Shown here one piece after another: positions 7,333 through 42,565 of a DNA stretch of 64,000 nucleotides. Within the stretch, counting starts at the first letter, position 1; each line of letters opens with the position of its first letter. This DNA comes from Planctomycetota bacterium (GTDB lineage: Bacteria > Planctomycetota > UBA1135 > UBA2386). A program made the translations under genes and the position numbers. Location of the stretch: the NCBI GenBank assembly GCA_045105235.1, contig JBGCDH010000024.1, positions 48,270 through 112,269 of the forward strand, written 5' to 3'. The notes under the pieces were generated by a model. It searched no databases. It was given only the letters and a program-made list of their open reading frames with translations, and was not told the origin of the DNA.

Positions 7333-7992
7333 CTACGGCGTCAGCAGCGTGCGCACCGCACGCTGCACGACATCGACAGCGGCGCCAAGGCTCCACTCGC
7401 CACGATCGCGGTCGCCGGTCCAGTTGCTGATCGCGCGCAGCTGCAGCAGCGGCAGCTCTTGCTGGCGGCAGAGGTAGGCAACCGCCGCCCCTTCCATCGA
7501 CTCGACGTCCGCGCCCGTGCGCGCTTGCAGTGCGCACGACGCCGCATCGATGCCGCTGCAGGTGCTGACCGTGACGCCATGCACGCGCGCAGCGCCGAGC
7601 CGTTCGACGGCAGCATCCTGCAGGCGCGGATCGCACGCGAACGGCCCGACATCGCCGAGCTTCATCGAGCCCAGGTCGAGAAAGCCGTCGGGGGTCGCGA
7701 CGCCTTCGTCGCCAAGCCGATCGTTGGCGACCACCACCAGGTCCCCGATACCTGCCGGTGCGGCGTCGCCGTCCGGTCGATGGCGCGTCGGAAACGCGCC
7801 CGCAATCCCAAACAGCAGCACAGCGCGCACGCTCGGACGCTCGACCAGCAGACGCTGCAGGTGCACGGCAGCGGCGACTTTGCCAACGCCTAGAACCTCG
7901 ACGCCGAGGTCCTCGAGCCCGTGCCCTTCAATCGGAGCGGCGTGCACCAGCAAAAACTCGTGGCGAGGGATTCCGCCAATGTCGGTGCTCAT
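7333..7992 (-). CDS. mqnB: Futalosine hydrolase (nucleoside phosphorylase superfamily)
   Basis: 219 aa. GVGKVAAA, FGIAGAF, ESMEGAAVA and RAISNWTGDRDRGEW blocks match the PNP_UDP_1 fold and my recollection of the MqnB C-terminal motif. Confidence 0.7.
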   Translation of the reverse strand: MSTDIGGIPRHEFLLVHAAPIEGHGLEDLGVEVLGVGKVAAAVHLQRLLVERPSVRAVLLFGIAGAFPTRHRPDGDAAPAGIGDLVVVANDRLGDEGVATPDGFLDLGSMKLGDVGPFACDPRLQDAAVERLGAARVHGVTVSTCSGIDAASCALQARTGADVESMEGAAVAYLCRQQELPLLQLRAISNWTGDRDRGEWSLGAAVDVVQRAVRTLLTP

Positions 7993-20881: not shown

Positions 20882-22648
20882 ATGAACCGACACGCGCTGC
20901 TGTGCCCCCTCGCTGGGGCGATTCTGGCTATTTCTCCCGCGGCCCAAATACCATTGCCCGACGTCCAAAAGGCGGTGCGATTCGACACCGGGGACCTTTT
21001 GCAAGGCTCCGTCGGCACGACCTCGAACGGCGAGATTGTCGCGTACAGCAACCCAGCAATGGGCTACGGACACGAGACCCTGAGCGGCAACGGCTACGTC
21101 GACATCGCACGGCTTGATGCGTTCGTCTTGGGCGAAACCGAAGACGTCGTCGCGCTGAACGGCGCCGGCGCCACCACGCTCCACTGGGACCGCAACACCG
21201 GCGCCTGGAGCCAATCGGCGTGGGGCGAAACGAGCCTAGTCGGGTCGCAGGCCGTCCGCTCGCGCAAGCTGCCGGGCCTCTCTCTCAACGTCGTCTGCCT
21301 GCTCGATGCCGACGACACCACTGCGCATGTCTACCGCTACGGCACCGGTCACTTCCACTTGACGGACGTCGTATTCGGCCAGAACGTCTTGGACATCGAA
21401 ATTGGATTCGACACAAACAACGCCGTGCTCCTCGTTGCACGGCACGCCAGCGGACTCGAGGCACGCCACCTCAACGGCAACCTGGCCTGGACCGCCAGCG
21501 GCATCGGCGGCGAACTGGTTCGCACCGAGTCGGGCGGCGGCGACATCGGCTGGATCCGGCGCGACACGAGCGGCGGCGGCTGGAAATACGCTTCCATCAC
21601 GGCAACCGGAGAAACGGTCACGGACCTGAGCACGGCCATTCCCATGGCTCAAAACGTGCTCGCGGCACACCTCGCGCACTGCGACCTCGACACGGATCTC
21701 GACCTCGTCACCAAGACAGCGCAACAGGTCGTCGTCGTCTACGGCGATTCGGCGACGACGCTCGACGCATCCACGGCGAACATCGCGCACACCTACACAG
21801 CGGCCGACATGGTCGAGACGGACATCTCGATCGACAACGGCGGCCAGACGATCTCCATCGTCGGCAGTGCTACGGCCGCCAGCCCGACCTGGCCGGTCGC
21901 AGCCGAGCACGCGCAGCAGGCTCGACCTGTTAGCGGTTCGTCTCTTGAAATGACCGACTGCGGTTTGGCCGGCGCAACCAACGGCACAAAACTAACCATG
22001 CGCGTCTGGCTTAGCTGGGAAGAGCTGCAGCGCTTCTCCAACAGCTCGAACACGGCCACGATCGAAGTGCTGGTGCGCAGTGCTCCGCACTACGCCTCGA
22101 CCGTCGGCGACCCGATCGGCAACACGCGGCACTACGAACTGCAGCAACCGATCGGGACACCGGCCCAGATTGCCTACGACCTGCCGCTGGTTGTCGGTGA
22201 AGCGCTGCTCTCACCTGGCTCCATCAGCCCGTACTACTGGGAAAATGACACGCACAACTTCGTCACGATGCGGCTACTCCGCAAGAACAACTCGACTGGC
22301 CTGATAAGCCGAACGGGCCTCCCCGTCACGTACGGGGTCTCATGCGCCGAAGACCAGCAGGAGATTCCGTCGCCCGCAGATCCTTACGCCGGATTCGACG
22401 ACTTGGTCGCTGCAGCCACAGGCAGCGGGATCATTCGGTGGCACGGCCCAGACGGGCTGCCACCCCTCAGTGGCGGCGGCAGCGGCGGGGATCCCGGCGA
22501 CGGCGGCTGCGCCCGCACGGCCCTCTACGTCGGCGGCGTCGTCGGCGTCACGACGGAAATCGACCCACCGCGCACGAACGGTACCCAGGGCGCAGGCGAC
22601 ACGTCCCAGGTCATCGTCGTCCCGCCGTCCGGTTCGACTGGCGGCTAG
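20882..22648 (+). CDS. Large secreted protein, unknown function
   Basis: Signal-like N-terminus MNRHALLCPLAGAILAISPAAQ. 588 aa with a Gly-rich C-terminal tail. The stop codon sits in a CTAGTG direct duplication abutting MITE copy A. Confidence 0.7.
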   Translation: MNRHALLCPLAGAILAISPAAQIPLPDVQKAVRFDTGDLLQGSVGTTSNGEIVAYSNPAMGYGHETLSGNGYVDIARLDAFVLGETEDVVALNGAGATTLHWDRNTGAWSQSAWGETSLVGSQAVRSRKLPGLSLNVVCLLDADDTTAHVYRYGTGHFHLTDVVFGQNVLDIEIGFDTNNAVLLVARHASGLEARHLNGNLAWTASGIGGELVRTESGGGDIGWIRRDTSGGGWKYASITATGETVTDLSTAIPMAQNVLAAHLAHCDLDTDLDLVTKTAQQVVVVYGDSATTLDASTANIAHTYTAADMVETDISIDNGGQTISIVGSATAASPTWPVAAEHAQQARPVSGSSLEMTDCGLAGATNGTKLTMRVWLSWEELQRFSNSSNTATIEVLVRSAPHYASTVGDPIGNTRHYELQQPIGTPAQIAYDLPLVVGEALLSPGSISPYYWENDTHNFVTMRLLRKNNSTGLISRTGLPVTYGVSCAEDQQEIPSPADPYAGFDDLVAAATGSGIIRWHGPDGLPPLSGGGSGGDPGDGGCARTALYVGGVVGVTTEIDPPRTNGTQGAGDTSQVIVVPPSGSTGG

Positions 22649-22650
22649 TG

Positions 22651-22848
22651 CTAGTGTAGGGCACCTGATATGGGGGCATTCTGCGGGCGCGAAGACGCCC
22701 GTCACGGCGTTGCTGCTTCTCGGCAGGAAGGCTTCTCGACAGGAAGGCTTCTCGGCAGGAACAATAGAACATGCATTCGTCGCAGCACCTGGCGACGAAC
22801 GCCTTCGCTTCCCGGATCATGCCCCGTCTACCAGATGCACGACACTAG
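22651..22848 (+). mobile_element. MITE-like palindromic element, copy A (198 bp)
   Basis: Termini CTAGTGTAGGGCACCTG ... CAGATGCACGACACTAG. The two ~65 bp arms are imperfect inverted repeats. By eye about 85% identical to the reverse complement of copy B. Carries an internal 16-bp tandem duplication (aggaaggcttctcg[ag]c x2). Lies between convergent genes. Confidence 0.85.
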
Positions 22849-25538
22849 CCGCGAACGAACGGCGCCGGCGCTTGCTTGCGGCTGCCGCGACGTAGGACGA
22901 GCATGAGCAAGACAAGCGCGCCCAACGGGGCCGCAAGCCAGAGCCAGCCATACGGACCTCGCCCTGGCACGGGCGTCGACACAAAGCAGCGACCGCCGTC
23001 GCCGTACGCTTCGAGCTGGGCGAGCCGAAAGGCGCGCAGCCGATCGCCGCCGCCGCCAACGCCGTCCGCCACGCGCGCGCGACGAAGGGCTTCGGCCACC
23101 GAGACTCCCTGCTGCAGCTCGCGGAGGAGAACCGGCAACACGTCGCGGTAGACGCCGAGCCGCAGCGGCGCTGGACTCGCAACCACAGCGTGAGCGCCCG
23201 CGTGCAGCCAAGCTCCTACCAGCGTGTCGGCGACCGTATCGTTGCCCATCCGGAGAGGGCCACGCGCACCAAAACAAGCGGCCATCGCAACGATCCCGGA
23301 GTGCTGCAGCGCACGGATGCGCGGCGCGCTGAGCAGGCCGCCAGCGGCAGCGCCAGCGGAATCGGCAGCGGGATCGGCAAGAAGATCTGCGGAGGCAAGA
23401 CCTACGGAAACATCGCGCGCGTCCATCGCCAGACCCAGCGCGGCGTCGCGCATCTGCGTTCTGGCGGCGCCATGCGCCAAGACAACGGTCAGATCGTTCG
23501 GCTCGGCGCAGAATCCTTCGAGCTTGGCAACGGTCGCATCCGCCCCAAACGCCACACGCGTGTCAGCCGGCAGGCATTGACCGAGTTCGCGCCAAAGCGT
23601 CGCGGCGAGCGTGCTGGCGGCGGGTTCGACGGCTACATCGCGTCGAAAAACGGGCCCCGGATCGAGCGTCGCCACGCAAACCGATCGCGGCGCTTTGGCA
23701 AGGTCTGCCGCCGCGGCCCCGCGACCAAGCGCACGGTCCTGCTGCAAGCGCACCAGCAGCGGCAGGGACGAAATCGTCGTCGTAGCAAAGCGCTCCCCCA
23801 TCAGCTTGCCGTCGGCAAGCTCCAGAGCGGCAAACGGCGGCGCTCCCAAGAGCCCGGCCCCGCTCACGTAGACATGCCGCCAGCCAGCCATGCGCGCAAC
23901 AGCAGCATCGGGCAGCAGCTGCCGGCACAAGCCGCGGCTCACGTCGCGCACATCGGCCAACTCCTCTTGACCAACATCCAGTCCGTCCAGCGCTGCAAGC
24001 TCTGCCTGCAGCGCGCGACTGCCCTCACGCAGGCGGCGCATGCCGGTCAAGCGGTGATGTGAGACACCATCTCGATCCACCAAGAACAGATGCGAACTCT
24101 GCCAGACCACCGCGTAGACGAGCACGCCCGTGCCAACGGGAAGGCGACGTTGCAGTGCGGAAACGTCGAGAGGTTGCGCCCCGCGTGCGTCGGCCAACTG
24201 CGTGCATCTCTGCACATCGAGCACGGGCTGCAGCGCAGCCGACGGTCCATCCAGATCGGCAATCGCCGTCACCAGTTCGCCGAGCACGCGCAGCCGGGTG
24301 CCAAAACGAAGATGCCCGACGGCATCCGGCAACTCGGCCAACCGCCGCCAGGAGTCGATTCGTTTTGCAAGCAGGGCGCGCAGCACGCCAACCAAACGCC
24401 GCTGCTCCGCACGATCGCCGCTGAGGTTGGCCAAGTAGGCTGAGAGTACGTCCAGCTTCCAGCCCAGGTCCGGCGCAATGCCTTCGGTTGTCAGCGCCGC
24501 CAGCTCGGTCTTGGCGTCGTCGAGATCGCCCGCTTGCGCCGTTAGATCGACAAGCCATAGGCGAAGCAGACCCGCGCTTCGCGGGTCAATCTGTCCCTTG
24601 GCAAGCAGCGCCTGCAGGCGCGCAGCCGCCGGCCGGCACTGCTTGGCATCGTCGAGAGCCGCCAGGTAGGCGGCATGGCATTCGAAGACTGTGAGCAGCT
24701 GCTCTTCGCGCGCCGACGGCGCCTGGCTCTCTGCAGTGCGTAGGTCTCGATACTGCTGGATGCTGCGCCGCAGGCCTTCGTGGTCACGCTGCACGCCGAG
24801 CAGATCAAAGCTGCGCCGCCACACATCCAGCCGAATCGAACGGTAGTACGGAAGCAAGCGGTCCTCGGCGCCAGACGCAGCGGCAACGAGCGACTGCGCC
24901 GCCGCCTGCGCGCGCTGGAAGCCGCGCGCCGCGCGCCCAAGCCGCCCAAACTGGGTATGCACATAGCTTTCTAGGCTCAAAAACGCCGTGCGCTGCGCTT
25001 CATCCACATCGAGCGCACGCAGCCGTGCGAGCGGCGTGGCAACCAACGCCAGCCGCTCAAGGCTCAGCAACAGATCCACCTCGAGCATCAACCGGTAGAA
25101 GCGCACCGAAGCATCTTTGGCGCACGCAGCATCGGCGCGACGAAGCAGCCGAAGAGCCCCCTCTACCTGCTGGTCTCGGATCAGGCGACGCGCGCCGTCG
25201 TAGCCAAACCGATCCAAAACCCCCGGCGCCTGAACCGCGAGTCGCGCCGCAACCGCATCGAGAAGAACCAGCAGTCGCTTGCCGCGTATGCTGGCATCGG
25301 CGAGCAACTTGTTTGCCGCGCTTTGCAAGAAGCCTCGGTCGGCCCTGCTGTTCGCGGCCGCCGACTCGAATCCCGCGACGGCCCGCTCAGACTGCTCTTC
25401 CGCGAGCCAGGTAAAGGAATTCTCAGGCGCAATCGACTCCTGCGCTGCCATGCCTCCGGCCAGCAGCAAACTCATTGCGACAGCACCGAAACGAAGATCA
25501 GCCCGCAGCAGTCCGCCCCCTTCGCGCCGATCGAGCAA
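22845..25538 (-). CDS. Exported TPR-like repeat + CHAT (caspase-like protease) domain protein with C-terminal TM anchor
   Basis: C-terminal CHAT-like region with His in VVLAHGAA (codon 23472-23474) and Cys in AMAACFGARG (codon 23274-23276). Long helical repeat N-terminal region. C-terminal helix GWLWLAAPLGALVLLMLVL. Start uncertain: TTG 25538 or ATG 25475 give RADLRFGAVAMSLLLAGGMAA-QE as a signal peptide, while the ATG at 25826 would overlap the anti-sigma gene by 130 nt in a frame with poor third-position GC. Confidence 0.85.
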   Translation of the reverse strand: MLDRREGGGLLRADLRFGAVAMSLLLAGGMAAQESIAPENSFTWLAEEQSERAVAGFESAAANSRADRGFLQSAANKLLADASIRGKRLLVLLDAVAARLAVQAPGVLDRFGYDGARRLIRDQQVEGALRLLRRADAACAKDASVRFYRLMLEVDLLLSLERLALVATPLARLRALDVDEAQRTAFLSLESYVHTQFGRLGRAARGFQRAQAAAQSLVAAASGAEDRLLPYYRSIRLDVWRRSFDLLGVQRDHEGLRRSIQQYRDLRTAESQAPSAREEQLLTVFECHAAYLAALDDAKQCRPAAARLQALLAKGQIDPRSAGLLRLWLVDLTAQAGDLDDAKTELAALTTEGIAPDLGWKLDVLSAYLANLSGDRAEQRRLVGVLRALLAKRIDSWRRLAELPDAVGHLRFGTRLRVLGELVTAIADLDGPSAALQPVLDVQRCTQLADARGAQPLDVSALQRRLPVGTGVLVYAVVWQSSHLFLVDRDGVSHHRLTGMRRLREGSRALQAELAALDGLDVGQEELADVRDVSRGLCRQLLPDAAVARMAGWRHVYVSGAGLLGAPPFAALELADGKLMGERFATTTISSLPLLVRLQQDRALGRGAAAADLAKAPRSVCVATLDPGPVFRRDVAVEPAASTLAATLWRELGQCLPADTRVAFGADATVAKLEGFCAEPNDLTVVLAHGAARTQMRDAALGLAMDARDVSVGLASADLLADPAADSAGAAAGGLLSAPRIRALQHSGIVAMAACFGARGPLRMGNDTVADTLVGAWLHAGAHAVVASPAPLRLGVYRDVLPVLLRELQQGVSVAEALRRARVADGVGGGGDRLRAFRLAQLEAYGDGGRCFVSTPVPGRGPYGWLWLAAPLGALVLLMLVLRRGSRKQAPAPFVRG

Positions 25539-25644
25539 GACCGAGCGCCTAGCCGCCGCCGTCGCCGGACCCCACGCCGCTGAATCCAGCGTGGAAGCAC
25601 GCGGCGCTGCAGAATCTGGCGTCCCAAATTCTGGCGCGACAAGA

Positions 25645-25712
25645 GCCGGCGCTACGTAGTCCGGCGCTACATAGTCCGGAGCTACGGAGTCCGGAGCTAC
25701 GGAGTCCGGCTC
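25645..25712. repeat. about 4.5 x 15-bp tandem repeat at the anti-sigma/CHAT gene junction
   Basis: gccggcgctacgta / gtccggcgctacata / gtccggagctacgga / gtccggagctacgga / gtccggc. The anti-sigma stop (25697-25699) lies inside one unit. In the CHAT-ORF frame the units read DSVAP/DYVAP. Confidence 0.9.
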
Positions 25713-26446
25713 GAGCTTGCCCAGCCCGACGTCTGTAGAACAACGCCATCGTCGCCAACCGCACGCACGCGCCAGCGGAACGCCGCCACCGGCAGCTGTT
25801 GGAGTTGTGCGTTGTTGGGAAGCCATCGCGTCTGCGTGAACCTATCCGGAAGCGTCCGCTTTGGGCCTTCTGACTCCGGCCGTAGGTCGATGCGGTAGAC
25901 GACGGTTTCCGGCACTGGCTTCCATACGAATCCTGCCGCAGGATCAAAAGCGACCCCGTTCGGCTCCAGCTCCATTGCATCCACGGTGCCGAGCCGCGGG
26001 CCGTCGCGCTCCGCATCGGAATCGACAGCCCCGCCTGCGCGCAGCACCAAAACGATCATCAGCGAAGCCGCAGCAGCCGCCATCGCCGCGAAAACGGCCC
26101 ATCGACGCCGGCTCGGCAGCAACTTGCTCGCCGCACGATCGGTAGGCACCAGATCATCCGCCGCCATACCGCGCAAACGCCGATGCGCACAATCGCGCGC
26201 AACAAGGCCTTCCATGTCGAGCTTTGGACCATCTCCATCCATGCCGGCCGACGCACTGCGCAAGTCATCGCCGACATCTTCGAGCTCCTCCATCTGCGCG
26301 GCAAACTCGCGCATACGACGCCACTCTTCGCGCGCCCCAGGATTGCTATCGAAGAGCCTCCGCACATCGGGGTCGTCCACGGTACGCTCACCAACCATCA
26401 ACGCTGCCAGCAGCTGCTCCCGTTCGCCTCCTGGAAGGTCGTTCAT
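25697..26446 (-). CDS. Single-pass anti-sigma-factor-like protein
   Basis: Start overlaps the sigma stop (ATGA). ~115 aa acidic cytoplasmic N-domain, TM helix WAVFAAMAAAAASLMIVLVL, ~105 aa extracytoplasmic C-domain. No HxxxCxxC zinc motif. Confidence 0.7.
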   Translation of the reverse strand: MNDLPGGEREQLLAALMVGERTVDDPDVRRLFDSNPGAREEWRRMREFAAQMEELEDVGDDLRSASAGMDGDGPKLDMEGLVARDCAHRRLRGMAADDLVPTDRAASKLLPSRRRWAVFAAMAAAAASLMIVLVLRAGGAVDSDAERDGPRLGTVDAMELEPNGVAFDPAAGFVWKPVPETVVYRIDLRPESEGPKRTLPDRFTQTRWLPNNAQLQQLPVAAFRWRVRAVGDDGVVLQTSGWASSSRTP

Positions 26447-27039
26447 GCTCGCTCTTCCCGACCGTGATGAACCTCCGACATGCGCATCACCTCTTCCAGC
26501 GACTTCATGCCGCGATAGAAGCGCCCCCGAATGGTGTTGGTGCTCACGCCGAGCCTGATGCCGATTTCGACGAACGTCAAGCCATCAAGATATCGCATGC
26601 GAACGGCCTGAGCATCGGACGACTTGACCTGTTCTAGCGCCGCAAAGATCATCTCGCGGCGCTCAACCGAGGCCAGCGCATCCTGAGCTCCATCCTCGAT
26701 AGTATCGTCGATCGAACGCGTGGCAGAGCGCCGCTTGCGACGCAGCGCGTTGCGCAGTTCCAAGTTGCAGATGCGGTAGAGCCACGCGCCAAGCGGCACA
26801 CCCTGCACGAATTTTGGCAGCTTGCGCAGCGCGATCACGCAGGAGGCCTGGGCTAGATCCTCAACCTCCGACGCGTCCAGCAAACGACCGAAGCGACGAT
26901 TTAGGCAAGCCGCGATGCGCGGCAGATGCTGCAGGCGCGCCACAATCTGGGTAGCCGCGCCGCCATCGCCCGCAAGGTAACGCATCACCAGATCGTGATC
27001 TGCCGCGACATCTTCGGTTTCGTTGAGAGGATCGTTCAC
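26443..27039 (-). CDS. ECF-type sigma-70 family RNA polymerase sigma factor
   Basis: Region 2-like DLAQASCVIALRKLPKFVQGVPLGAWLYRICNLELRNALRRKRR and region 4 HTH VRMRYLDGLTFVEIGIRLGVSTNTIRGRFYRGMKSL. Start placed at GTG 27039 (alternative ATG 26985). The long N-terminal extension of ORF 26443..27573 looks non-coding. Confidence 0.85.
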   Translation of the reverse strand: MNDPLNETEDVAADHDLVMRYLAGDGGAATQIVARLQHLPRIAACLNRRFGRLLDASEVEDLAQASCVIALRKLPKFVQGVPLGAWLYRICNLELRNALRRKRRSATRSIDDTIEDGAQDALASVERREMIFAALEQVKSSDAQAVRMRYLDGLTFVEIGIRLGVSTNTIRGRFYRGMKSLEEVMRMSEVHHGREERA

Positions 27040-27280
27040 AGAATGGGAAGCACTGCCGGGCGACAGCTTGCGACCAGCTGGAGGTCTAGCGCGGGTCGTG
27101 CAGCACGCAGCCACCAAGCCGCGGCTGCGCGCGCCCTTCGCACTGGTTGCAGATCTTCCTATCACAGGCGCTGCATGTCGTAACCCTGCTCGAAAGTCCG
27201 AAGATTCTGATTTCTTGACCAGAGCGCACGGAAGTCGACGGACCACGCCGGAGATCGGACAAAGCGCTAAGCTCTTGCAG

Positions 27281-29674
27281 ATGCGGAAACCATGGTTCCA
27301 GCTCGTCACCTTGCTGGCGGCAGTCTTAAGCCTGCCGGCACAGAAGTCCGCGAGCCCGCCAGCAGTTGTCCGAACGGGCAAGCCCCAAAGCGCCGCCGCC
27401 AAAACCCGGCCAGGCACGCCTTTTCCGATTGGCAGCCACCGTATGGCAATCGAATGCCCCGGTGGACAGCTACCGTTCTTCCTGACGCTAAACGGCGATT
27501 CGCCCGGCAGCAGCATCGCTACCGCGGCGACCATCTTCAACGGCGACGAACGCATCGCGGTCCCGAGCGTCACGGCGAAAGCGGACGGCCGCCTGTGGCT
27601 GCGCTTCCCGCACTACGACGCCGAGCTGGCGTTGACCGTAGACGCGGTCGCCAAGACGATCGCGGGCGAGTGGATCAAGCGGCGCGGCAGCGGCAAGGCC
27701 ACGCGCATGCAGGTGCAGAGCACGGCGGGGAAACGGCGCTTCCCCCAGCTCTCGCCGGCGCCGAAGGCCGCCGCGATGCAGCGCACCATCGCTTGGTGCA
27801 GCGGCCGGTTTCGCGTGCAGTTTGGCGACAGCAAAGACGTCGCCGTCGGCATCTTCGCGCCGGCCACCGCGGCGGGTGCATGGGCACAGCGCTCTTCACA
27901 CCGGGGGACCTTTTTGACAACCCTCGGCGACTACCGGTATCTGGCGGGCCAAGCGGGTCCCCGCGAGATGCGGCTATCGTGCTTTGATGGCGCCCACGCG
28001 TTCTTGTTCCAGGCACGGCCAGGAGCCAAGCCCGACACCATCGAAGGCGACTTCTGGTCATCCGACAGCTGGCATGAAGCGTGGACCGCAACGCGCGACC
28101 CGGACGCAGTCTTGGCCGACGGTTTTTCCCTGACGCGCATGCGCGACGACGCGGCCGTCGAAACCACACCGTTCCTAGATCTCGATGGACAGCAGCGCAC
28201 GCTTGCCGACGCCGGCCTCGCGGGCACCGTTCGCATCCTCGAAGTCTTTGGCACATGGTGCCCCAACTGCCAGGACCACGGGGCCTACATGGCGGAGCTT
28301 CACCGCCGCTACGCCGACCGTGGCGTCAAGATCATCGGCTTGGCCTTCGAGCACGCGGGCGACGCCGAGCACAGCATCCGACAGGTGCAGACGTTCGTGG
28401 CGCGCCACGGCGTCGAATACCCTGTTTGGCTCGGCGGCTCTTCCAACAAGCAAGAAGCCACCAAGCAGCTCGGCTTCTTCGACCGTGTGCGCAGCTTTCC
28501 GACGACCGTCTTCCTCGACCATCGCGGCCAGGTTCGCGGCGTCTACCAAGGATGGTCGGGGCCGGCGACGGGTGCCAGCCACGTGCGCTTGAAGCGACGC
28601 TTTGAAGAACGCATCGACGCGCTGCTCGCCGAACGCAGCGAGACCGTGCGATCGGGGCGCGTGCTCGACCACGATGGCCAACCGGTCGTCAACGCCGAGA
28701 TCCTCTGCTTCGCGGCCAACGACATCCGCACGCTCGAAGTCCTGACGGACACCGACGGGCGCTTCCGTTTTCCTAGCGACCTCGGTGTTCAGTCGGTCGC
28801 CGCACGCTACCAAGCCGTGCTCAGCAAAAAGCGCCCGCTGGCTGCGGACAATGCGATCACGCAGCTGCGACTCCCCAAGCCCAAGTGGCGAATCAGCGGC
28901 CGGGTCCTTCTTCCCAACGGCCGCCCCGCCGAAGGTGTCGACGTTGCGCTGACGGATGCAGTCAAAGAAGGCGTGAAGCGAACCAAGGTCCTCGCCTCAA
29001 CGACGATCGATGCGCAAGGACGCTTTGCCATCCGCTGCGGCGAGCAGGCGCCCGCCCGACTGCTGGTCGACCCACTCGGACTCCGCCACGCAATCGAGGG
29101 GCCGTTCGAAGCGGACGCCCATCTCAATCTGGACATGCGGCTGCTGCAGGACCAGTTCCAGCGCATTGTTGGCCGCGTGCTCGATCTCGACGGCGCGCCA
29201 GCCGCCGGCGCGCCCGTCGTTGCCTTTGACGAAACGAGCACCGATCGCATTCGCTGTGGCGCGGCTCGCACGGCGGCCGACGGCAAGTTCGAGCTGTGGA
29301 CAAGCCGCCGCCCGAACACGATGGTTGCAAGCGTCAACGGCATCCGTTTGCACCAACAGGCGGGCGAGTGGGATCGCGACGAGCCCATTGAATTCGACCC
29401 CAAGGTCGATGCGCTGGTATCGATCCGTGGACGCGTCGAAAACCGCGACAACTCCGCCGCGCCGGCCATGCAGATCTACACGAGCACCGACGGCAAACTC
29501 GCGCCGGGCAGCCGGGCGCTCACGCGCAGCGGCCGCGACGGGGACTTCCGCGCCATGATCCGCCGCGGCACCAAGTTCTTGATCGCCGCCGATGGCCGCG
29601 AAGTCTTTGCGGTGCTCGCGGCCCCCAACGACCAGGAAAAGATCGTGCTGCAGCCGTCGGCCGACAAGCGCTAG
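27281..29674 (+). CDS. Secreted multidomain thiol:disulfide oxidoreductase (TlpA/thioredoxin-like, WCPNC) with C-terminal carboxypeptidase-regulatory-like repeats
   Basis: ATG at 27281 gives the signal peptide MRKPWFQLVTLLAAVLSLPAQ. ~330 aa unknown N-domain. Thioredoxin fold with FGTWCPNCQDH (CPNC at 28259-28270). Then 3-4 GRVLD.DG.P-type beta-sandwich repeats. Divergent from the ECF sigma gene. Confidence 0.85.
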   Translation: MRKPWFQLVTLLAAVLSLPAQKSASPPAVVRTGKPQSAAAKTRPGTPFPIGSHRMAIECPGGQLPFFLTLNGDSPGSSIATAATIFNGDERIAVPSVTAKADGRLWLRFPHYDAELALTVDAVAKTIAGEWIKRRGSGKATRMQVQSTAGKRRFPQLSPAPKAAAMQRTIAWCSGRFRVQFGDSKDVAVGIFAPATAAGAWAQRSSHRGTFLTTLGDYRYLAGQAGPREMRLSCFDGAHAFLFQARPGAKPDTIEGDFWSSDSWHEAWTATRDPDAVLADGFSLTRMRDDAAVETTPFLDLDGQQRTLADAGLAGTVRILEVFGTWCPNCQDHGAYMAELHRRYADRGVKIIGLAFEHAGDAEHSIRQVQTFVARHGVEYPVWLGGSSNKQEATKQLGFFDRVRSFPTTVFLDHRGQVRGVYQGWSGPATGASHVRLKRRFEERIDALLAERSETVRSGRVLDHDGQPVVNAEILCFAANDIRTLEVLTDTDGRFRFPSDLGVQSVAARYQAVLSKKRPLAADNAITQLRLPKPKWRISGRVLLPNGRPAEGVDVALTDAVKEGVKRTKVLASTTIDAQGRFAIRCGEQAPARLLVDPLGLRHAIEGPFEADAHLNLDMRLLQDQFQRIVGRVLDLDGAPAAGAPVVAFDETSTDRIRCGAARTAADGKFELWTSRRPNTMVASVNGIRLHQQAGEWDRDEPIEFDPKVDALVSIRGRVENRDNSAAPAMQIYTSTDGKLAPGSRALTRSGRDGDFRAMIRRGTKFLIAADGREVFAVLAAPNDQEKIVLQPSADKR

Positions 29675-29712
29675 CGGGCCGGTTTCAGCGAACCGGCGTT
29701 CGCGGTCCAAAC

Positions 29713-29879
29713 CTAGTGTGGTGCATCTGGTAGACGGGGTATTATCCGGGATGCGAGGGCGTTCGTCGCAAGGCGCTGCGACGAACGCATGTTGCATACG
29801 TCCTGCCGAGGAGCAGCAACGCCGCGACGGGCGGCTTCGTGCCCGCAGAATGCCCCTGATATCAGATGCACTACACTAG
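29713..29879 (-). mobile_element. MITE-like palindromic element, copy B (167 bp, inverted relative to copy A)
   Basis: CTAGTGTGGTGCATCTGGTAGACGGGG ... CAGATGCACTACACTAG. The reverse complement aligns along the whole of copy A except for A's 16-bp internal duplication. Lies between convergent genes. Confidence 0.85.
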
Positions 29880-29904
29880 TGTCTACGAGATCCCACGACA
29901 CTAG
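29876..29904. repeat. Minimal CTAGTGTC...GACACTAG terminal-repeat pair abutting copy B
   Basis: ctagtgtctacgagatcccacgacactag: 8-bp inverted termini identical to the MITE ends. The last CTA is the stop (TAG) of the minus-strand TPR gene. Confidence 0.6.
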
Positions 29905-30806
29905 CGAGCCAGCGTCGCCAGCTGCTTTTGCAAGTCCGTCGAAGCCGGGTGCCTCGCCAGTCCGCGCCGCCAGATTTGCGCTGCACGCTCGGTCTCCCCA
30001 CGCTGCGCACACAGATTGCCGAGCATGTAGTAGACGCGCGCATGCTCGGACTCCGCCGGCATCGTCTCCTGCTGTGCGATCAGCTTTTCGAAGTGGCCGA
30101 TGGCCTCTGGATGGCGCCCATACGTCGCCGGCCAGAACGAGAGCTTGACGGCCTTTTCGTAGCGCGCCGTCCAGTTCTGTGGATCCAGATCCAGCACGCT
30201 GCTGTAGGCATCGTCGGACTCGCGCCAGAGGCCCCCGCCCGCGTGGTTCGGGTCGGCCATCGCCGCCGCGTGGACCGCTCTCGCGAGATCGTGATGCGCC
30301 GCAACAGAGCCGGGCGCATCGTCCACGTGCGCCCGAAACACATCGAGCACTTCGTCGGTCTGCCCGCTTTCGAGGATCTGCTCCCAAACGCTCCTCGTCG
30401 ATTCTCCCGACGCCAGCAGCGGCCCAAGCTGCTTCGCGAGCTCTTCCGGAGACAGCGGCCCCACCGATTTGGGCGCAGCGGTGGCAGCACGAGCATCACC
30501 TAGAGCATCCGATCCTGAGCGCTGCTCTTGCAAGGCACTCGCCACCAGTGCGCGAATCTGCTCCGGGTCCACAAGCGTCGAGCGGGCTTCGGTTCGCTCC
30601 GGCGCGGCTTCGAGATCCGCCAACCGCAGCTTGAGACCCTGCAGGTCGGCACGAAGCTCCGCGGCAAGTTCGGCGCCCGTCGCAGCAGAAACCGTTGCGG
30701 GCGGATCCGGCGGCGATTGCCGACCCGCAACGAGAGCGAGAGCCGTCATGGCGGCGACTGCGGCGCTGAGGCCGCAAGGAAGAAGAACAGTCGACAGGTT
30801 CGGCAT
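29901..30806 (-). CDS. Exported TPR-repeat protein
   Basis: ATG at 30806 preceded by GAGGTG. N-terminus MPNLSTVLLPCGLSAAVAAMTALALVAG. C-terminal TPR-like helices (ARVYYMLGNLCAQRGETERAAQIWRRGLARHP). Confidence 0.75.
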   Translation of the reverse strand: MPNLSTVLLPCGLSAAVAAMTALALVAGRQSPPDPPATVSAATGAELAAELRADLQGLKLRLADLEAAPERTEARSTLVDPEQIRALVASALQEQRSGSDALGDARAATAAPKSVGPLSPEELAKQLGPLLASGESTRSVWEQILESGQTDEVLDVFRAHVDDAPGSVAAHHDLARAVHAAAMADPNHAGGGLWRESDDAYSSVLDLDPQNWTARYEKAVKLSFWPATYGRHPEAIGHFEKLIAQQETMPAESEHARVYYMLGNLCAQRGETERAAQIWRRGLARHPASTDLQKQLATLAR

Positions 30807-30925
30807 CGGAACACCTCGGTAGGAGCAAGACGTAGCCGCGGATCGCAGCTTGGAAGCGAGCACGAAGCTCGCGTGCGCAGCGCGCACCCACCACTCGCAA
30901 GCGGGGCGCTAAGGGCTCACGTTTT

Positions 30926-33508
30926 TCACAAACCCATCGCGGCACGCAGTTCGGCCAACAAACGTGGACCGTCGCTGCGGCTGGCAGCCTTCGCTTCCGC
31001 ATCACGCAGCGCCGATCGATAGAGCGACGCAAGCCCGCGGCGATCGCCCAACCCAGCCCCGAGAAGCTCCATCGCCGCAACGTAGAGGCGGTCCGACATT
31101 CGCCGATACTCTTCGGGCGCAACCGCGGACCAGCGCCGCTCAACCTCGTCGGCGCAGGCCGATCGCAGGTCGCCATCGACGCAAGCGAGGCGAACCGCGG
31201 CAAACTGCGTCCACTCCACCAGGGCTGAAGCGTCGTAGAGCTCGCTGTCTAGCTCCCTGGCCGCAATTTGCTCCATCCCTTGCTGCGCGCGGCGGGCGGC
31301 ACGACCTCGGTCAACCTCCGCCAAGTGCTGAAGCTCCAGCCCCAGCTGCGTTCGCAGATCCTGCCGCCGCCGCGTCGTGGGTCCGTCCGCGTACGTTTGC
31401 AGGGCCGCATCGGCGCACTTTTGCAAATGCGGCCCGCACTCCTGACTTCGCACCGGGTCATACTTCAGCCAGGCTCCCACCCGAAAGTGCGACCAGCCCC
31501 ATAGGCGGCGCCATCGCGCCGGATTCGCCGCCGGATCCGCACGGCCACGCTCGGCAACGGCAAGGGCGGCTTCGGCATCGGCAAGGCCGCTGCGCGACGC
31601 TCCTGCAGCGATGGAGCTTGCGAAAAGTTGGCCACTCTCCGGATGGCTGTAGCGGAAGTCACAGCGCGTCCAGTAGGCAGCCACCAGGTCTGCCTCGACC
31701 GACAGGTCCCCAGCATCGCTCTCGGCACAGCGCGCGTGCGCGAGGGACACCAGCTCATCCGCCGCGGCCGCCCCCAATCGAACCTTGCCCGTCTTGCGGC
31801 AGCTGTGCACGTAGTCCACCAGCGAACCAGCCAGCAACCTGCGGGCTTCCGGCCCGGCACGCAATGCTGCATGCCTTCGCGCCAGGTCCACAGCTTGCAC
31901 AAACGCCTCATGGCCAACCGTCGCATCTTCGGGCGCCGCAAACCACTCGCTGCCGTGCAGATCGCCAACGCGTCGATAGGCGGCGATCAACGTTTTTCGG
32001 CTGGCGGCGTCGTCCACCAGCGTGCCGCGCAGTTCCTCGAGCTTGGCGAACGCTTCTTTCACGGCCAGCCGCCGTTGGTCGAGCCCTACGGTCCGCTGAA
32101 CCTTCTCGGCCGATTGCCGGATCAGCTCCGCAGTCATCGTCTCCGCCACGAGAGCGAGCCGATCTCTGACGTCATTCAGGTCGACCTTCGCGGTTCTCAA
32201 ACGAGCTGCTCGCTCCTGCGACTGGGCTTCGGCCGCGCGGTAGTCCGCGACGGCAGCGTCCGCTTTGACGTAGAGGACGACAATGGCAATCAGGCCAGCG
32301 GCGAAGACTGCGAAGGCCGCCGCAACCCCAGCACACAGAGCCGTGCGACGGCGCGCAAACAGCACCAAGCGGTGGCCAAGAGAAGAACGGCGCGCGACAA
32401 CGGGCTCACACGCAAGGTAGCGGCGAAGATCGTCGCGCAGTTCGTCGACGCCGTCATAGCGCTGATCTGGATCCGGCTGCAGGCTACGCGCCACAATCGC
32501 CGCGAGGTCGTCCGGCAATCCGGCGACCGCCGCGCGGACATCGGCCGCTGTCGACGAGCGGATCCGTGACAGAGCCTGCAGCATGGACTCGTCGCCGTGC
32601 AGCAACGGATGCCCGCCGCTACGCAGCAGCTCGAACAGCATGACGCCAAGAGCGTAGACATCGCTGCGCACGTCCCCGCCGGCGATCCGCCCCTCCGCTT
32701 GCTGGGGACTCATGTAGAGCACCGTGCCGATCAGTTCCCCGTCGCACTGCCGCGTCAGCTCTGCGCGCGACCCAGACAGCAGCCTGGCAATGCCGAAGGC
32801 GATGACCTTGACGTCGACTTGGTCGTGCGCGCGCTGCCTCGGGGCACCGGACACGACGACGTTTGCCGGCTTTAGATCCCGGTGAAGAAAGCCGCATCGG
32901 TGAGCGTGATGGACCGCATCGCAAACGCGCACGAACAGCGCCAACCGCGCGCCGGTCGGCAGGGAGGCCGACTCGCAGTAGGTGGATATGGGCAGCGGCT
33001 GCGGCACCAGTTCCATCGCGATCCAGGACAGACACTGGCCATCGATCGACTCCTCACCAGCACCGAAGATGCTGGCAATCGACGGATGGTCCAGCTCTGC
33101 CAGCGCCTGCGCTTCGGCGGCGAACCGACGAGCCGCCGCATCCCCCACGCGCGACCAGCGCAGCACCTTGAGCGCAACCCGGCGGCGCGGAGTGGCCTGC
33201 TCGGCCTCGTAGACTTCCGCCATGCTGCCCGCCCCGAGCGTGCTCAAGACCTGGAAGCCACCGAGCACGCTCCCGACGAGATCGAGTGGCTCCGAGCGCG
33301 CCGCATCCGCCGACCAGTCCGGCGGCAGCTCGGGCGCCGAGTCCAGCAGGGCATGTTCGCGAGCGTCAGCATCCAGCAGTTCTTGCAGCTCACGGTGCAG
33401 CTCCGGCTCCGCTCGACCAAGCTGCTCCAGGTAGGCGGCGCGCTCGGCGTCGCCCATAGCCTGCACGCGGTCGAAGGACGCCGCCAACCGTTCAAGATCG
33501 ACACTCAT
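30926..33508 (-). CDS. Membrane Ser/Thr kinase-like protein (AFG variant of DFG) with large helical C-terminal sensor domain
   Basis: ATG at 33508, 32 nt below the sigma gene stop. Motifs LGAGSMAEVYEA, VALKVL and HRDLKPANVVV, but KVIAFGIAR instead of DFG. TM helix LCAGVAAAFAVFAAGLIAIVVLYV. ~430 aa helical C-terminal region. Confidence 0.9.
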   Translation of the reverse strand: MSVDLERLAASFDRVQAMGDAERAAYLEQLGRAEPELHRELQELLDADAREHALLDSAPELPPDWSADAARSEPLDLVGSVLGGFQVLSTLGAGSMAEVYEAEQATPRRRVALKVLRWSRVGDAAARRFAAEAQALAELDHPSIASIFGAGEESIDGQCLSWIAMELVPQPLPISTYCESASLPTGARLALFVRVCDAVHHAHRCGFLHRDLKPANVVVSGAPRQRAHDQVDVKVIAFGIARLLSGSRAELTRQCDGELIGTVLYMSPQQAEGRIAGGDVRSDVYALGVMLFELLRSGGHPLLHGDESMLQALSRIRSSTAADVRAAVAGLPDDLAAIVARSLQPDPDQRYDGVDELRDDLRRYLACEPVVARRSSLGHRLVLFARRRTALCAGVAAAFAVFAAGLIAIVVLYVKADAAVADYRAAEAQSQERAARLRTAKVDLNDVRDRLALVAETMTAELIRQSAEKVQRTVGLDQRRLAVKEAFAKLEELRGTLVDDAASRKTLIAAYRRVGDLHGSEWFAAPEDATVGHEAFVQAVDLARRHAALRAGPEARRLLAGSLVDYVHSCRKTGKVRLGAAAADELVSLAHARCAESDAGDLSVEADLVAAYWTRCDFRYSHPESGQLFASSIAAGASRSGLADAEAALAVAERGRADPAANPARWRRLWGWSHFRVGAWLKYDPVRSQECGPHLQKCADAALQTYADGPTTRRRQDLRTQLGLELQHLAEVDRGRAARRAQQGMEQIAARELDSELYDASALVEWTQFAAVRLACVDGDLRSACADEVERRWSAVAPEEYRRMSDRLYVAAMELLGAGLGDRRGLASLYRSALRDAEAKAASRSDGPRLLAELRAAMGL

Positions 33509-33539
33509 GCCTAGGACTCGTCGGAGTGGCGCAGGCAGC

Positions 33540-34229
33540 TCACGCTTTCTCGCGATTTTCTGGGCTGCGAGTTTCGGGGCTACGATCTTCGGTCGCGTCG
33601 CCGTCGCCATCGCCATCGCCATCGCCGTCGCGATCCATGGCCCGCAAAAGCCAAGCCCGGGCAAAGCCCCAGTCGCGCTTGACCGTTGCCACCGAAACAT
33701 CAAGAGCCTTGGCCGTCTGCGCCACGCTCATGCCGCCGAAGAAGCGCAGCTGCACGACCTGCGCACGCCGGGTGTCCTGCTGATCCAAAGCGGTCAGCGC
33801 CCGGTCGAGACGAAGCATGGCTCCCGGGTCATCGACAGGCATGCCGGCTTTGTCGCCACCGCCGAGTTCGTGAACATCCACATCGCTACGCCCGCCCGCA
33901 TCGCGCTTCACGGCACCGCGTCGGCGTGCGTGGTCGACGAGAATCCATCGCATCGCCTGCGCGGCCAAGGCCCGAAAATGCTCCTCATCGCGAACTTCGA
34001 GGTGCTGAGAAACGCGGTCGGCGGCGGGGCCGGGATCAGGGTCGCGGTCGGCGAGGTCTGCATCGGAATCTGGCCGCGCACCGCGGCCCAGCAGGCGAAG
34101 CCACGCCTCGTGGACCAGGGCCGTCGCCTGCAGCGTCTGCCCCACGGGCAACCCGGCAAGACGCTGCTGCGCGATACCGCGCAGCTCGTCGTAGACGCGC
34201 ACAAACGCCTGATTCGGATCGGCAGCCAT
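33540..34229 (-). CDS. ECF sigma factor of the kinase-associated type (Sigma70_ECF / TIGR02999-like)
   Basis: VYDELRGIAQQRL, ATALVHEAWLRLL, WILVDHARRRGAVKR and VVQLRFFGGMSVAQTAKALDVSVATVKRDWGFARAWL. Start at ATG 34229 (alternative 34295). Repetitive acidic C-terminal tail. Confidence 0.85.
   Translation of the reverse strand: MAADPNQAFVRVYDELRGIAQQRLAGLPVGQTLQATALVHEAWLRLLGRGARPDSDADLADRDPDPGPAADRVSQHLEVRDEEHFRALAAQAMRWILVDHARRRGAVKRDAGGRSDVDVHELGGGDKAGMPVDDPGAMLRLDRALTALDQQDTRRAQVVQLRFFGGMSVAQTAKALDVSVATVKRDWGFARAWLLRAMDRDGDGDGDGDGDATEDRSPETRSPENREKA
33556..33635 (-). repeat. In-frame 15-bp (x ~2.5) and 6-bp (x ~7) tandem repeats encoding the sigma-factor tail (DGDGDGDGDGD...RSPETRSPEN)
   Basis: gtcgcc/atcgcc hexamer run at 33592-33635. 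ttctgggctgcgagt / ttcggggctacgatc units at 33556-33590. Confidence 0.85.
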
Positions 34230-34293
34230 CGTTGCAAGATAGCCAAACACGAACGACGCGCACGAGTCGCCGCTCGCTATAGTGGGATTCGGC

Positions 34294-35493
34294 ATGCGCG
34301 TCGTCCTGGCACTGTTTCGCTATTTTCCGCATGGCGGCATGCAGCGCGACGCGATGGCGACCGCCGCGCTCCTGCAGGAGCGCGGTCACGACGTGCGCAT
34401 GGTTTGCCACACCTTTGCAGGGCCCGGCACTGCTCCGCAAACGGGCACTGGTCCTCAAACCGGCACTGGTCCGCAAACCGGCAGCGACCGCGTGCCGATC
34501 GATGTGCTCAGGGCCGGCGGCCGCACCAACCACGGGCGCGCGGCTCGCTTTGACCGGCTGCTTGCGGAGTATCGCGCCCGCCAGCAACCCGACGTCGTCG
34601 TCGGCTTCGACAAGCTGTCCGGGCTCGATTTCTATTTTGCCGCCGATCCCTGCTTCGTCGATCGCACGCGGAACCGGCCCTTCGCCTACCGCTGGACGCC
34701 GCGCTACCGCACCTTTCGCGCCCTCGAAGGCGCGGTCTTCGCCCGCACGTCGACAACCCGCATCTTGCTGCTGGCGAACGCGACGGCAGCGGCCTATCGC
34801 GATGCGTGGCAGACGCCGGCCGATCGCTTCGTGCTGCTCGGGCCGGGCGTCGCGCGCGATCGCTGCCGCAACGATCGCGCAGCGGCGCTGCGCGCGGCCG
34901 GGCGACGCGAGCTCAAGCTTGGCGACGAACACCGCTGCCTGCTGATGCTCGCGGCCAACCCACACCTGAAGGGACTCGATCGCGCGCTGGCCGCCGTCCG
35001 CGAATTGCCCGAGGCAGAACGCGGGCGATGCCGGCTGGTCGCAGTAGGCGCAGGTCACAGCGACGACATGGCCGCGCTCGCCCAACGCGCCGGGCTCGGC
35101 GACCAGCTGATGCAGCTACCGGGCCGCGACGAGGTTCCACAGCTGCTGCAGGCCGCGGATCTGCTGGTCCACCCGGCGCGCCGCGACACCACCGGCACGG
35201 TGCTGCTCGAAGCCCTCGTGGCTGGTCTGCCCATCGTGTGCAGCGACGCCTGTGGCTACGCCGAACACGTGCGCGCGGCCGACGTCGGCGAAGTGCTGGC
35301 GCAGCCCGCAAACGCAAGGGCCTTCGCCGCCGCCATCCGCCGCCAGCTGCAGCGCCCGCGCGAACAAGTTGTCCAGCGCGCGGCGAGCTACGGACGCGCA
35401 CACGACCTTCACTCCATGCACGAACAGCTGGTCGAGCAGATCACGGCAGCGCGCCCGCCCCGTTCGTGTCGTGCAGCCGGTAGACGGGGATGA
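34294..35493 (+). CDS. waaG: Family-4 glycosyltransferase, WaaG (RfaG)-like LPS core glucosyltransferase
   Basis: Collinear with E. coli WaaG as I recall it: ALFRYFPHGGMQRD, VVVGFDKLSGLDFYFAADPCF, RYRTFRALEGAVF and AADLLVHPARRDTTGTVLLEALVAGLPIVCSDACGYAEHV. The last ~9 codons plus the stop lie inside MITE copy C. Confidence 0.85.
   Translation: MRVVLALFRYFPHGGMQRDAMATAALLQERGHDVRMVCHTFAGPGTAPQTGTGPQTGTGPQTGSDRVPIDVLRAGGRTNHGRAARFDRLLAEYRARQQPDVVVGFDKLSGLDFYFAADPCFVDRTRNRPFAYRWTPRYRTFRALEGAVFARTSTTRILLLANATAAAYRDAWQTPADRFVLLGPGVARDRCRNDRAAALRAAGRRELKLGDEHRCLLMLAANPHLKGLDRALAAVRELPEAERGRCRLVAVGAGHSDDMAALAQRAGLGDQLMQLPGRDEVPQLLQAADLLVHPARRDTTGTVLLEALVAGLPIVCSDACGYAEHVRAADVGEVLAQPANARAFAAAIRRQLQRPREQVVQRAASYGRAHDLHSMHEQLVEQITAARPPRSCRAAGRRG
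34424..34486 (+). repeat. 3.5 x 18-bp in-frame tandem repeat (TGTGPQ units) inserted in waaG-like gene
   Basis: ccggcactgctccgcaaa / cgggcactggtcctcaaa / ccggcactggtccgcaaa / ccggcagcg. Confidence 0.9.
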
Positions 35494-35545
35494 TCCGGGC
35501 TGCGAAGGCGTTCATCGCAAGGCGCTGCGACGAATAGGCAGAAGC
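35466..35545 (-). mobile_element. MITE-like element, copy C (partial/degenerate, one arm, same orientation as copy B)
   Basis: gtgtcgtgcagccggtagacggggatgatccgggctgcgaaggcgttcatcgcaaggcgctgcgacgaat aligns with the left arm of copy B. The distal arm is absent or strongly diverged. Confidence 0.7.
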
Positions 35546-42396: not shown

Positions 42397-42565
42397 TCGC
42401 GCGCGCCGCGAGCGCGCCAAGCACCATGGCATGGCGGCTTCGCACGCTAGCGGAACAACCCGTAGTTCGACTGAAGCAGCGCAATCGCCGGATTCGATGA
42501 AGGGCCTGGATCGAAGTCGAACGCTGCGGAAAGGCCGCATCGTCGTCGACGCGTCCACCTTTGCC

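Follow-up and report, generated by a model that had tools for sequence, protein, structure and literature searches.

A probable family of TA-inserting, non-autonomous transposons at gene ends in a Planctomycetota bacterium

The 64,000-nt stretch of DNA from a Planctomycetota bacterium analysed here (66% GC; hereafter the window) contains a small family of palindromic repeat elements, made up of two full copies, A and B, a truncated copy C and a solo terminal repeat; positions within an element are numbered in its forward orientation. Copy A is a full element of 192 bp on the minus strand (22654-22845; 22651-22848 including the flanking TA dinucleotides and the target C and G) and copy B a full element of 161 bp on the plus strand (29716-29876; 29713-29879 including TA and C/G, with the flanking TAs at 29714-29715 and 29877-29878). 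Both were recovered by a repeat finder, by a profile built from A and B and by alignment. The repeat finder and the profile also detected copy C, a degenerate left arm on the plus strand (35465-35535) that covers element positions 3-74. The solo repeat, which is found on the minus strand at 29879-29901, consists of GT and 21 nt of a left-type terminal repeat. Copy A is flanked on the left by a plus-strand open reading frame (ORF) of 588 aa and on the right by a minus-strand gene coding for a CHAT-domain protein, whereas the neighbours of copy B are a plus-strand gene for an AhpC/TSA-CarboxypepD_reg protein on the left and a minus-strand gene for a TPR protein on the right. The original prediction had placed both full copies between convergent genes, which agrees with the coding-type GC content at third codon positions that the flanking ORFs retain up to their stops; between convergent genes, the orientation of an element relative to its neighbours is uninformative. 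Copy C is located at the 3' end of a GT4 glycosyltransferase gene and is followed on the right by a sulfite-oxidase-like gene.

The repeat finder matched A and B in inverted orientation over 102 nt with 86% identity and over 56 nt with 93% identity, and in a global alignment 147 of the 167 shared columns are identical (88%), in addition to a single indel of 32 nt. This indel corresponds to two extra units of a 16-nt tandem repeat, GCTTCTCGGCAGGAAG, which is present in 2.9 copies in the core of copy A (22715-22761, plus strand). The sequences beyond the terminal CTAGs are unrelated, as gapped global alignments of the 60-nt flanks of A and B gave only 41-51% identity. A scan of the window with the 20-nt end pattern CTAGTGTNGKGCAYCTGRTA returned, without a mismatch, exactly the four ends of A and B and, with up to three mismatches allowed, nothing beyond these four ends (0.03 matches expected). 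With an nhmmer profile of A and B, we recovered A (E 1e-70), B (3e-57) and C (1.6e-16) from the 64 kb, and no other copy in the window, the next-best match having an E-value above 1. The predicted family of elements similar to miniature inverted-repeat transposable elements (hereafter MITEs), having CTAGTGT...ACACTAG termini and three copies in 13 kb, is therefore real, and A and B do align in opposite orientation over their whole length apart from the 32-nt expansion. Copy C is indeed a single arm, namely a truncated left one, but it ends at 35535 and does not reach up to 35545. The elements have a GC content of 60%. Judging from the 88% identity of A and B and from C, which is a mutated stub, the copies are old.

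No coding capacity was detected in A or B, in agreement with the original prediction: the indels between the two copies shift the reading frame, no ORF is conserved, and a concatenated six-frame protein query found no homologous protein. A frame in the right arm ending in RRDGRLRARRMPLISDALH and a stop, considered as a possible remnant of a transposase ORF, was rejected, as it is not conserved in A. No Rfam 15 family matches at the gathering thresholds; the best match below threshold, MIR3454 (22 bits against a threshold of 142), was dismissed as a long-hairpin artefact.

CTAG flanks A, B and the solo repeat on either side, and the ends in the window read C-TA-GTG...CAC-TA-G. The terminal inverted repeats are 17-20 bp long and start with GTGTnGTGCATCTGrTA, and helix 1 of the fold comprises 17 pairs. 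In the case of copy A, the TA at the forward right end (22652-22653) is a putative target-site duplication, and the TA at the forward left end (22846-22847) forms, together with G22845, the minus-strand TAG stop of the CHAT gene (22845-25826). The TAG stop of the 588-aa ORF (20882-22648) sits in the CTAG at 22645-22648, which adjoins A, and C29901 together with the TA at 29902-29903, beside the solo repeat, makes up the TAG with which the TPR gene (29901-30887, minus strand) ends. The terminal CTAG of copy C has mutated to TTCG, and its former TAG is now the TCG at 35464-35466, which is in frame with the glycosyltransferase ORF (34282-35493); this ORF extends nine codons into copy C and ends with the TGA at 35491-35493. 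Four terminal or adjoining TAGs, those of the CHAT, TPR and glycosyltransferase genes and of ORF 20882-22648, are present or ancestral stops. CTAG itself is 3.5-fold depleted in the window (57 observed, 198 expected), and six of the 57 occurrences belong to the elements. We infer that insertion took place in the TA of a CTAG that carries a stop codon and that the first G and the last C of the element rebuild both the CTAG and the stop. Under this model, the sites before insertion would have been GGCGGCTAGCCGCG for A, CCAAACCTAGCGAGCC for B and CCCCG(C/T)TAG for C. A duplication of TA in the window copies would follow the same model, which is supported by the sequence of a homologue described below.

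The sequence CGTTCGCGG occurs only four times in the window, both strands taken together, and two of these occurrences (22849-22857, minus strand; 29697-29705, plus strand) are found just beyond the forward left ends of A and B, at distances of 0 and 7 nt. Both have the same orientation relative to the element (rough p about 0.01), and their placement could reflect an extended target preference, additional element sequence or chance. CCGTTCG directly precedes the TGT of copy C.

Two further features are seen next to the full copies. Positions 29876-29904, directly after copy B, had been described as a minimal 29-bp pair of terminal repeats, a claim that does not hold: the segment contains a single left-type terminal repeat of 21 nt in inverted orientation plus 2 nt. 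The reverse complement of the 29-mer corresponds to GTGTCGTGGGATCTCGTAGAC followed by AC, and the repeat in it is three edits away from GTGTCGTGCATCTGGTAGAC. When searched at a stringency of three edits, GTGTCGTGCATCTGGTAGAC matches only the solo site, C and one end each of the full copies, the right one in A and the left one in B (null expectation 0.03 per window). The solo repeat is bounded by the TA at 29877-29878, which it has in common with copy B, and by the TA at 29902-29903. Copy A is preceded by a direct repeat of CTAGTG (22645-22650, plus strand; CTAGTG-CTAGTGT), possibly an excision footprint of the form TA+GTGC+TA. It can be inferred that the solo repeat and the CTAGTG duplication are traces of extra insertions into regenerated CTAGs: beside B, a second insertion would have been followed by an internal deletion, and beside A, a second insertion by an excision that left TA-GTGC-TA. 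ISY100, a member of the IS630 family, cuts 2 nt inside the 5' ends, duplicates TA and needs ends of ~24-30 bp (PMC2170065), and this position of cleavage makes short footprints that start with the first bases of the element plausible.

A distant homologue was found outside the window. When the fully open frame of B was compared with 1.84 billion representative proteins, it matched a spurious ORF of 184 aa (P0122) composed of three 57-aa repeats; a second match, P0123, is an unrelated repeat protein and was discarded. The spurious ORF is located on a metagenome contig of 10.7 kb and 67% GC (ENA ERZ25069412, ctg741528; hereafter L011), in a head-to-tail array (7906-8449) that starts with a 45-nt mini-element containing both terminal repeats and continues with three 164-nt units that are 98% identical. 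The array has a plus-strand MFS gene on one side and a minus-strand ORF on the other, and both of its terminal TAGs are the stops of these convergent genes. An L011 unit aligns with B end to end, with 100 of 167 columns identical (60%) and the same length and register; the alignment has a z-score of 7.4 and none of 1000 dinucleotide shuffles was as good, whereas the reverse complement gave a z-score of 1.7. The outer repeats of L011, TAGTGATCTGTCTGCG and CGCAGACAGACCACTA, are 16 nt long and 94% complementary. The ends of the array read C-TA-GTGATC...GACCAC-TA-C, which makes CTAG at the left end and CTAC at the right end, and the repeats are symmetric only under the TA model. As the right flank is TA-C and not TA-G, the duplication at this site is TA and not CTAG. 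The junctions between the units read CAC-A-GTG and not CAC-TA-GTG.

Mobilisation by an IS5- or IS630-type transposase had been proposed, and the ends were compared with those of seven IS630 loci from five lineages, which are NCBI-named and encode HTH_32 and DDE_3 domains. All seven have TA-G...C-TA ends, and several have CTAG on both sides at different sites. In one of them (L008), the left flank is G-TA, from which it follows that TA alone is duplicated in this IS630 element. IS630 itself has a preference for the TA in CTAG, according to references listed in PMC2170065. The L011 repeat GTGGTCTGTC is identical at nine of ten positions to GTAGTCTGTC of an Aphanizomenon insertion sequence (L013-15) and likewise to GTGGTTTGTC of locus L010, and the L011 element and IS630 elements share the repeat core GTrGTyTGTC. 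The TA flanks and the 9/10 match of the L011 ends favour the IS630 half of the proposal, while the IS5 half is disfavoured, as discussed below. In a large clade of the IS630 family (L008 2028-3169, L009 1986-3169 and ~90 hits to a 222-aa protein), the transposase is split into two ORFs 5 nt apart, an HTH_32 ORF of 155-169 aa and a DDE_3 ORF of 222 aa, which suggests programmed frameshifting or expression from two ORFs.

The predicted architecture of two imperfect inverted arms of ~65 bp and a long hairpin was borne out by RNA folding, which gives one long hairpin each for A and B. At the DNA level, the left arm and the right arm share ~65% identity over about 57-75 nt. The fold of B reaches -102.6 kcal/mol (z=-10.6 as RNA; z=-8.1 for the DNA fold), and that of A -86.3 kcal/mol (z=-4.1) for the plus strand and -96.6 kcal/mol (z=-6.3) for the minus strand, which is the forward strand. 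The perfect inner hairpin of 12 bp in copy B (GCGTTCGTCGCA-AGGCGC-TGCGACGAACGC; 29759-29788, plus strand) recurs in A (22773-22802, minus strand) and, apart from one mismatch, in C, but is not conserved in L011. We aligned the hairpins of A, B and two L011 units and used as controls the same alignment with the pairing partners slid by 1-3 columns. The consensus hairpin comprises 55 pairs that extend from the tips to near the centre, with 96.4% of the cells paired as compared to 27-51% in the slid controls. Twenty-two of the 55 pairs are altered on both sides between the lineages, as compared to 0-3 in the controls; between A and B, only one-sided and no compensatory changes were found. In all four sequences, the forward strand folds better than the reverse strand, by 10-33 kcal/mol, and in a structure-blind palindrome alignment of the four sequences G.T mismatches outnumber A.C mismatches (7:1, 8:2, 7:3 and 7:2). 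These comparisons between two lineages suggest that selection acts on a single-stranded form of the forward strand, most simply RNA. Symmetric binding of a transposase could account for part of the conservation of the arms.

We propose that the repeats are probably copies and fragments of a non-autonomous, TA-inserting DNA transposon, that is, a decayed MITE family, which was most likely mobilised by a transposase of the IS630/Tc1-mariner type. Bacterial MITEs are defined as elements of ~70-300 bp without coding capacity (PMC3733652), and the intrinsic features of such elements that could be examined are present here: a length of 161-192 bp, terminal inverted repeats within the ~15-30 bp expected of MITEs, non-coding sequence, sharp borders, a TA at either end, and a truncated copy as well as a solo repeat. 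To transpose, the element would be bound at both terminal repeats by a DDE transposase encoded elsewhere, excised and pasted into a TA, which would thereby be duplicated. Owing to the G...C tips of the element, insertion into CTAG would give C-TA-[G...C]-TA-G, so that CTAG is regenerated at both ends and the TAG stop is kept. As TA and CTAG are scarce at 66% GC and insertions within genes would be harmful, the survivors would be found on stop codons, mostly between convergent genes. The regenerated CTAGs might then attract second hits, which would produce the solo repeat by B and the CTAGTG duplication by A. Transcription from the flanking genes would yield a long RNA hairpin, which possibly acts on the 3' ends of the neighbouring mRNAs.

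Several observations weigh against this interpretation. Within the window, the CTAG...CTAG arrangement fits a duplication of 4 bp equally well, and the window repeat GTGTnGTGCATCTG resembles the sampled IS630 ends only at the GTG...CAC tips. The E-value of the L011 protein match (1.2e-5) is inflated by the three near-identical repeats, so that the case for homology of L011 is built on the DNA permutation test together with the matching length and register, and the covariation in the hairpin comes from two independent lineages on an alignment of 60% identity. An autonomous element with matching ends was not found, and a tblastn search revealed no IS630-type transposase in the 64-kb window. All window copies, which have unrelated flanks, are confined to 13 kb, and no second copy came from exact-end scans of the genomes of 185,579 species (one genome each), of JGI metagenomes and of IMG/VR; the many dispersed copies that characterise MITEs would thus be represented here by copies from a single 13-kb region. 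The scans returned seven single matches (L001-L007) that have neither a partner repeat nor similarity beyond the pattern, and these were treated as chance, ~35 or fewer hits having been estimated by hand with CTAG being depleted. The match in L005 is located upstream of an IS630 transposase gene, but a comparison with related IS630 copies placed the true left end of the insertion sequence, TA-GTGCACCGCTACCGCTAAAAC, ~55 nt further in, and the match was therefore rejected as well. This contig of 1540 bp contains two related copies of the IS630 family ~85 nt apart, with the chance match to the end pattern in the spacer, and the second copy has frameshifts at C/A homopolymers. Plasmid BLAST searches with B, the 49-nt end consensus and the L011 unit returned nothing usable, and a family-block pattern had no match among viral contigs. 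The CHAT protein has no homologue except itself, hence no orthologous empty site was obtained.

A first alternative, which we regard as unlikely, is that the repeats are primarily a functional RNA module at convergent 3' ends, which would stabilise transcripts, be cut by RNase III or insulate in both directions, would be retained by selection for its RNA structure, and for which mobility is only the means of spread. The 22 compensatory pairs between the two lineages, the better folding of the forward strand together with the excess of G.U over A.C, and the location of the elements exactly at stop codons would all be in line with such a role. In addition, conservation is higher in the internal blocks GTTCnTCGCnAGG...GACGAA than in the terminal repeats, the inner hairpin of A, with a T-rich tail behind it, was marked as terminator-like, and long stem-loop transcripts are known for bacterial MITEs (PMC2229807). 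On the other hand, only two lineages contribute to the covariation and the changes between A and B are one-sided; A folds worse than B and C is a decayed stub, a pattern that resembles neutral decay. Furthermore, no run of T follows the long hairpin, the terminator-like sites in the region are not in excess (11 as compared to 9.6 in shuffles), and the symmetry of the arms can also be explained by one transposase that binds both ends. One might speculate that both aspects are combined in a mobile 'gene-end cassette', a hairpin that inserts at TA, restores or generates TAG stops on both strands with its G...C tips and is subject, as forward-strand RNA, to purifying selection across distant lineages, so that convergent genes would acquire a stop codon and a 3' stem-loop; selection would then act on the hairpin and not on the ends bound by the transposase. 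We offer this as a rather doubtful extension of the transposon model.

A second alternative concerns the type of MITE. With true ends TGT...ACA and a duplication of the 4 bp CTAG, the element might have been mobilised by a transposase of the IS5 group, which targets YTAR, or of the IS481/IS3 type. Elements of the IS481/IS3 type have TGT...ACA tips, and the target of IS481 is NCTAGN. The CTAG on both sides of A, B and the solo repeat would suit this assumption, and MITEPsy1, an IS5-type MITE, duplicates CTAG or YTAA (PMC3189936). We nevertheless consider it improbable, as the C-TA...TA-C boundaries of L011 contradict a duplication of CTAG, and a 6-bp duplication of NCTAGN fails in the window at copy A, where GCTAGT stands against ACTAGC. 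The window ends start with GTG, or with TGT under the 4-bp model, and not with the GG or GA of IS5-type repeats, while it is with IS630 ends that the L011 terminal repeat agrees at nine of ten positions. Finally, the sampled IS630 elements look like CTAG...CTAG and yet duplicate only TA, as is seen from the G-TA flank mentioned above.

It is very improbable that the elements are single-stranded DNA palindromes of the REPIN/RAYT kind or derived from IS200/IS605, which a tyrosine HUH transposase would move in hairpin form. A long hairpin with strand asymmetry, the occurrence of REP-type repeats in Planctomycetes (PMC3733652) and a GTAG in the left repeat (GGTAGAC) could be cited for this origin; however, the elements have true terminal inverted repeats and TA flanks, whereas REP and IS200/IS605 elements have neither such repeats nor duplications, the arms are not palindromes of 20-40 bp, of the GTAG or CGTC tags typical of REP units the GTAG is missing from the right arm and from L011, and no gene for a RAYT or Y1/HUH transposase is found among the neighbouring genes. 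The chance that the similarity merely reflects local segmental duplication or gene conversion within 13 kb, the former of which the original prediction had named as a refuting case, is negligible, for although all copies lie within these 13 kb with none in the other 51 kb and no further copy came to light in the public collections scanned, the flanks of A and B are unrelated, the terminal repeats mark the exact limit of the similarity, the orientations of the copies are opposite, and the solo repeat and the L011 homologue, which has the same TA-bounded ends in an unrelated contig, point to transposition.

The transposon that we propose has close counterparts among known bacterial repeats. RUP from Streptococcus pneumoniae, an IS630-Spn1-type MITE, is likewise small (107 bp) and non-coding, has terminal inverted repeats, inserts at TA and is intergenic; a transposase of the IS630 family is assumed to mobilise it in trans, and it is a classic IS630-type MITE (PMC2229807). 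It differs in its unrelated, AT-rich sequence with stops in six frames, in its ~100 copies and in its known parent insertion sequence, whereas the window elements have a hairpin that takes up nearly their entire length. The Correia/NEMIS elements of Neisseria are also alike, with 100-155 bp, TA termini and a TA duplication, repeats of ~24 bp and variants of internal length, and their transcripts fold into long hairpins that are reported RNase III substrates. These elements are, however, restricted to Neisseria, where they have a specific consensus sequence with a repeat of 24-26 bp, unrelated in sequence, equipped with IHF-site and promoter motifs and present in hundreds of copies. Membership of the window elements in this family is implausible in view of the host, the GC content and the absence of a BLAST or Rfam match. 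ERIC and YPAL are imperfect palindromes of 127-168 bp at gene ends that are co-transcribed with their neighbours, but their sequences and hosts are unrelated, as judged by the lack of Rfam and BLAST matches only, and TA termini are absent from YPAL, whose duplications are variable. The likeness to Correia and ERIC elements seen in the original prediction holds for behaviour, that is, TA, the long RNA hairpin and the location at gene ends, and not for family membership. The elements of the IS630 family (IS630, IS870, ISY100 and L008-L015) have in common with the window elements the G...C tips next to TA and, as proposed here, the TA duplication and the CTAG preference, but are 1.2 kb in size and encode an HTH plus DDE_3 transposase, whereas the window elements encode nothing.

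Taken together, this is an undescribed family of an ordinary kind of bacterial repeat, which leaves the present understanding of bacterial mobile elements unchanged. It would add a GC-rich MITE family to the IS630-type group in Planctomycetota, where such elements are hardly documented. With regard to annotation, it accounts for three odd intergenic palindromes, for the 9-codon C-terminal extension of the glycosyltransferase and for the stops of several genes. The stop-preserving design of G...C tips and TA and the compensatory conservation of the whole-length hairpin between two distant lineages illustrate neatly, and in a testable way, how MITEs persist at the ends of genes.

Some additional features of the window are worth recording. 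The CHAT-domain protein encoded next to copy A shares 100% identity with NCBI MFK7740285.1, a protein of a Planctomycetota metagenome-assembled genome, and its gene belongs to a signalling-type neighbourhood (22845-33703) that also contains genes for an ECF-type sigma factor (26443-27573), the AhpC/TSA-CarboxypepD_reg fusion, the TPR protein and a Ser/Thr kinase of 925 aa. Two adjacent plus-strand ORFs, 39925-42396 (823 aa) and 42203-45076 (957 aa), are paralogous, and neither has a Pfam hit; repeats D5 and D18 recur at a spacing of ~2.68 kb with 72-81% identity. Tandem repeats of in-frame size are located at 25646-25710 near the 5' end of the CHAT ORF (15 nt, 4.3 copies), at 34424-34483 inside the glycosyltransferase gene (18 nt, 3.3 copies) and at 53171-53230 (15 nt, 3-4 copies; CGTCCCGCGCTGCAT). 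Besides CTAG, other palindromic tetramers are skewed in the window: GTAC (40 observed, 198 expected) and TTAA (3 observed, 52 expected) are rare and GATC (476) and TCGA (603) are enriched, which is possibly a signature of restriction-modification or of codon usage.

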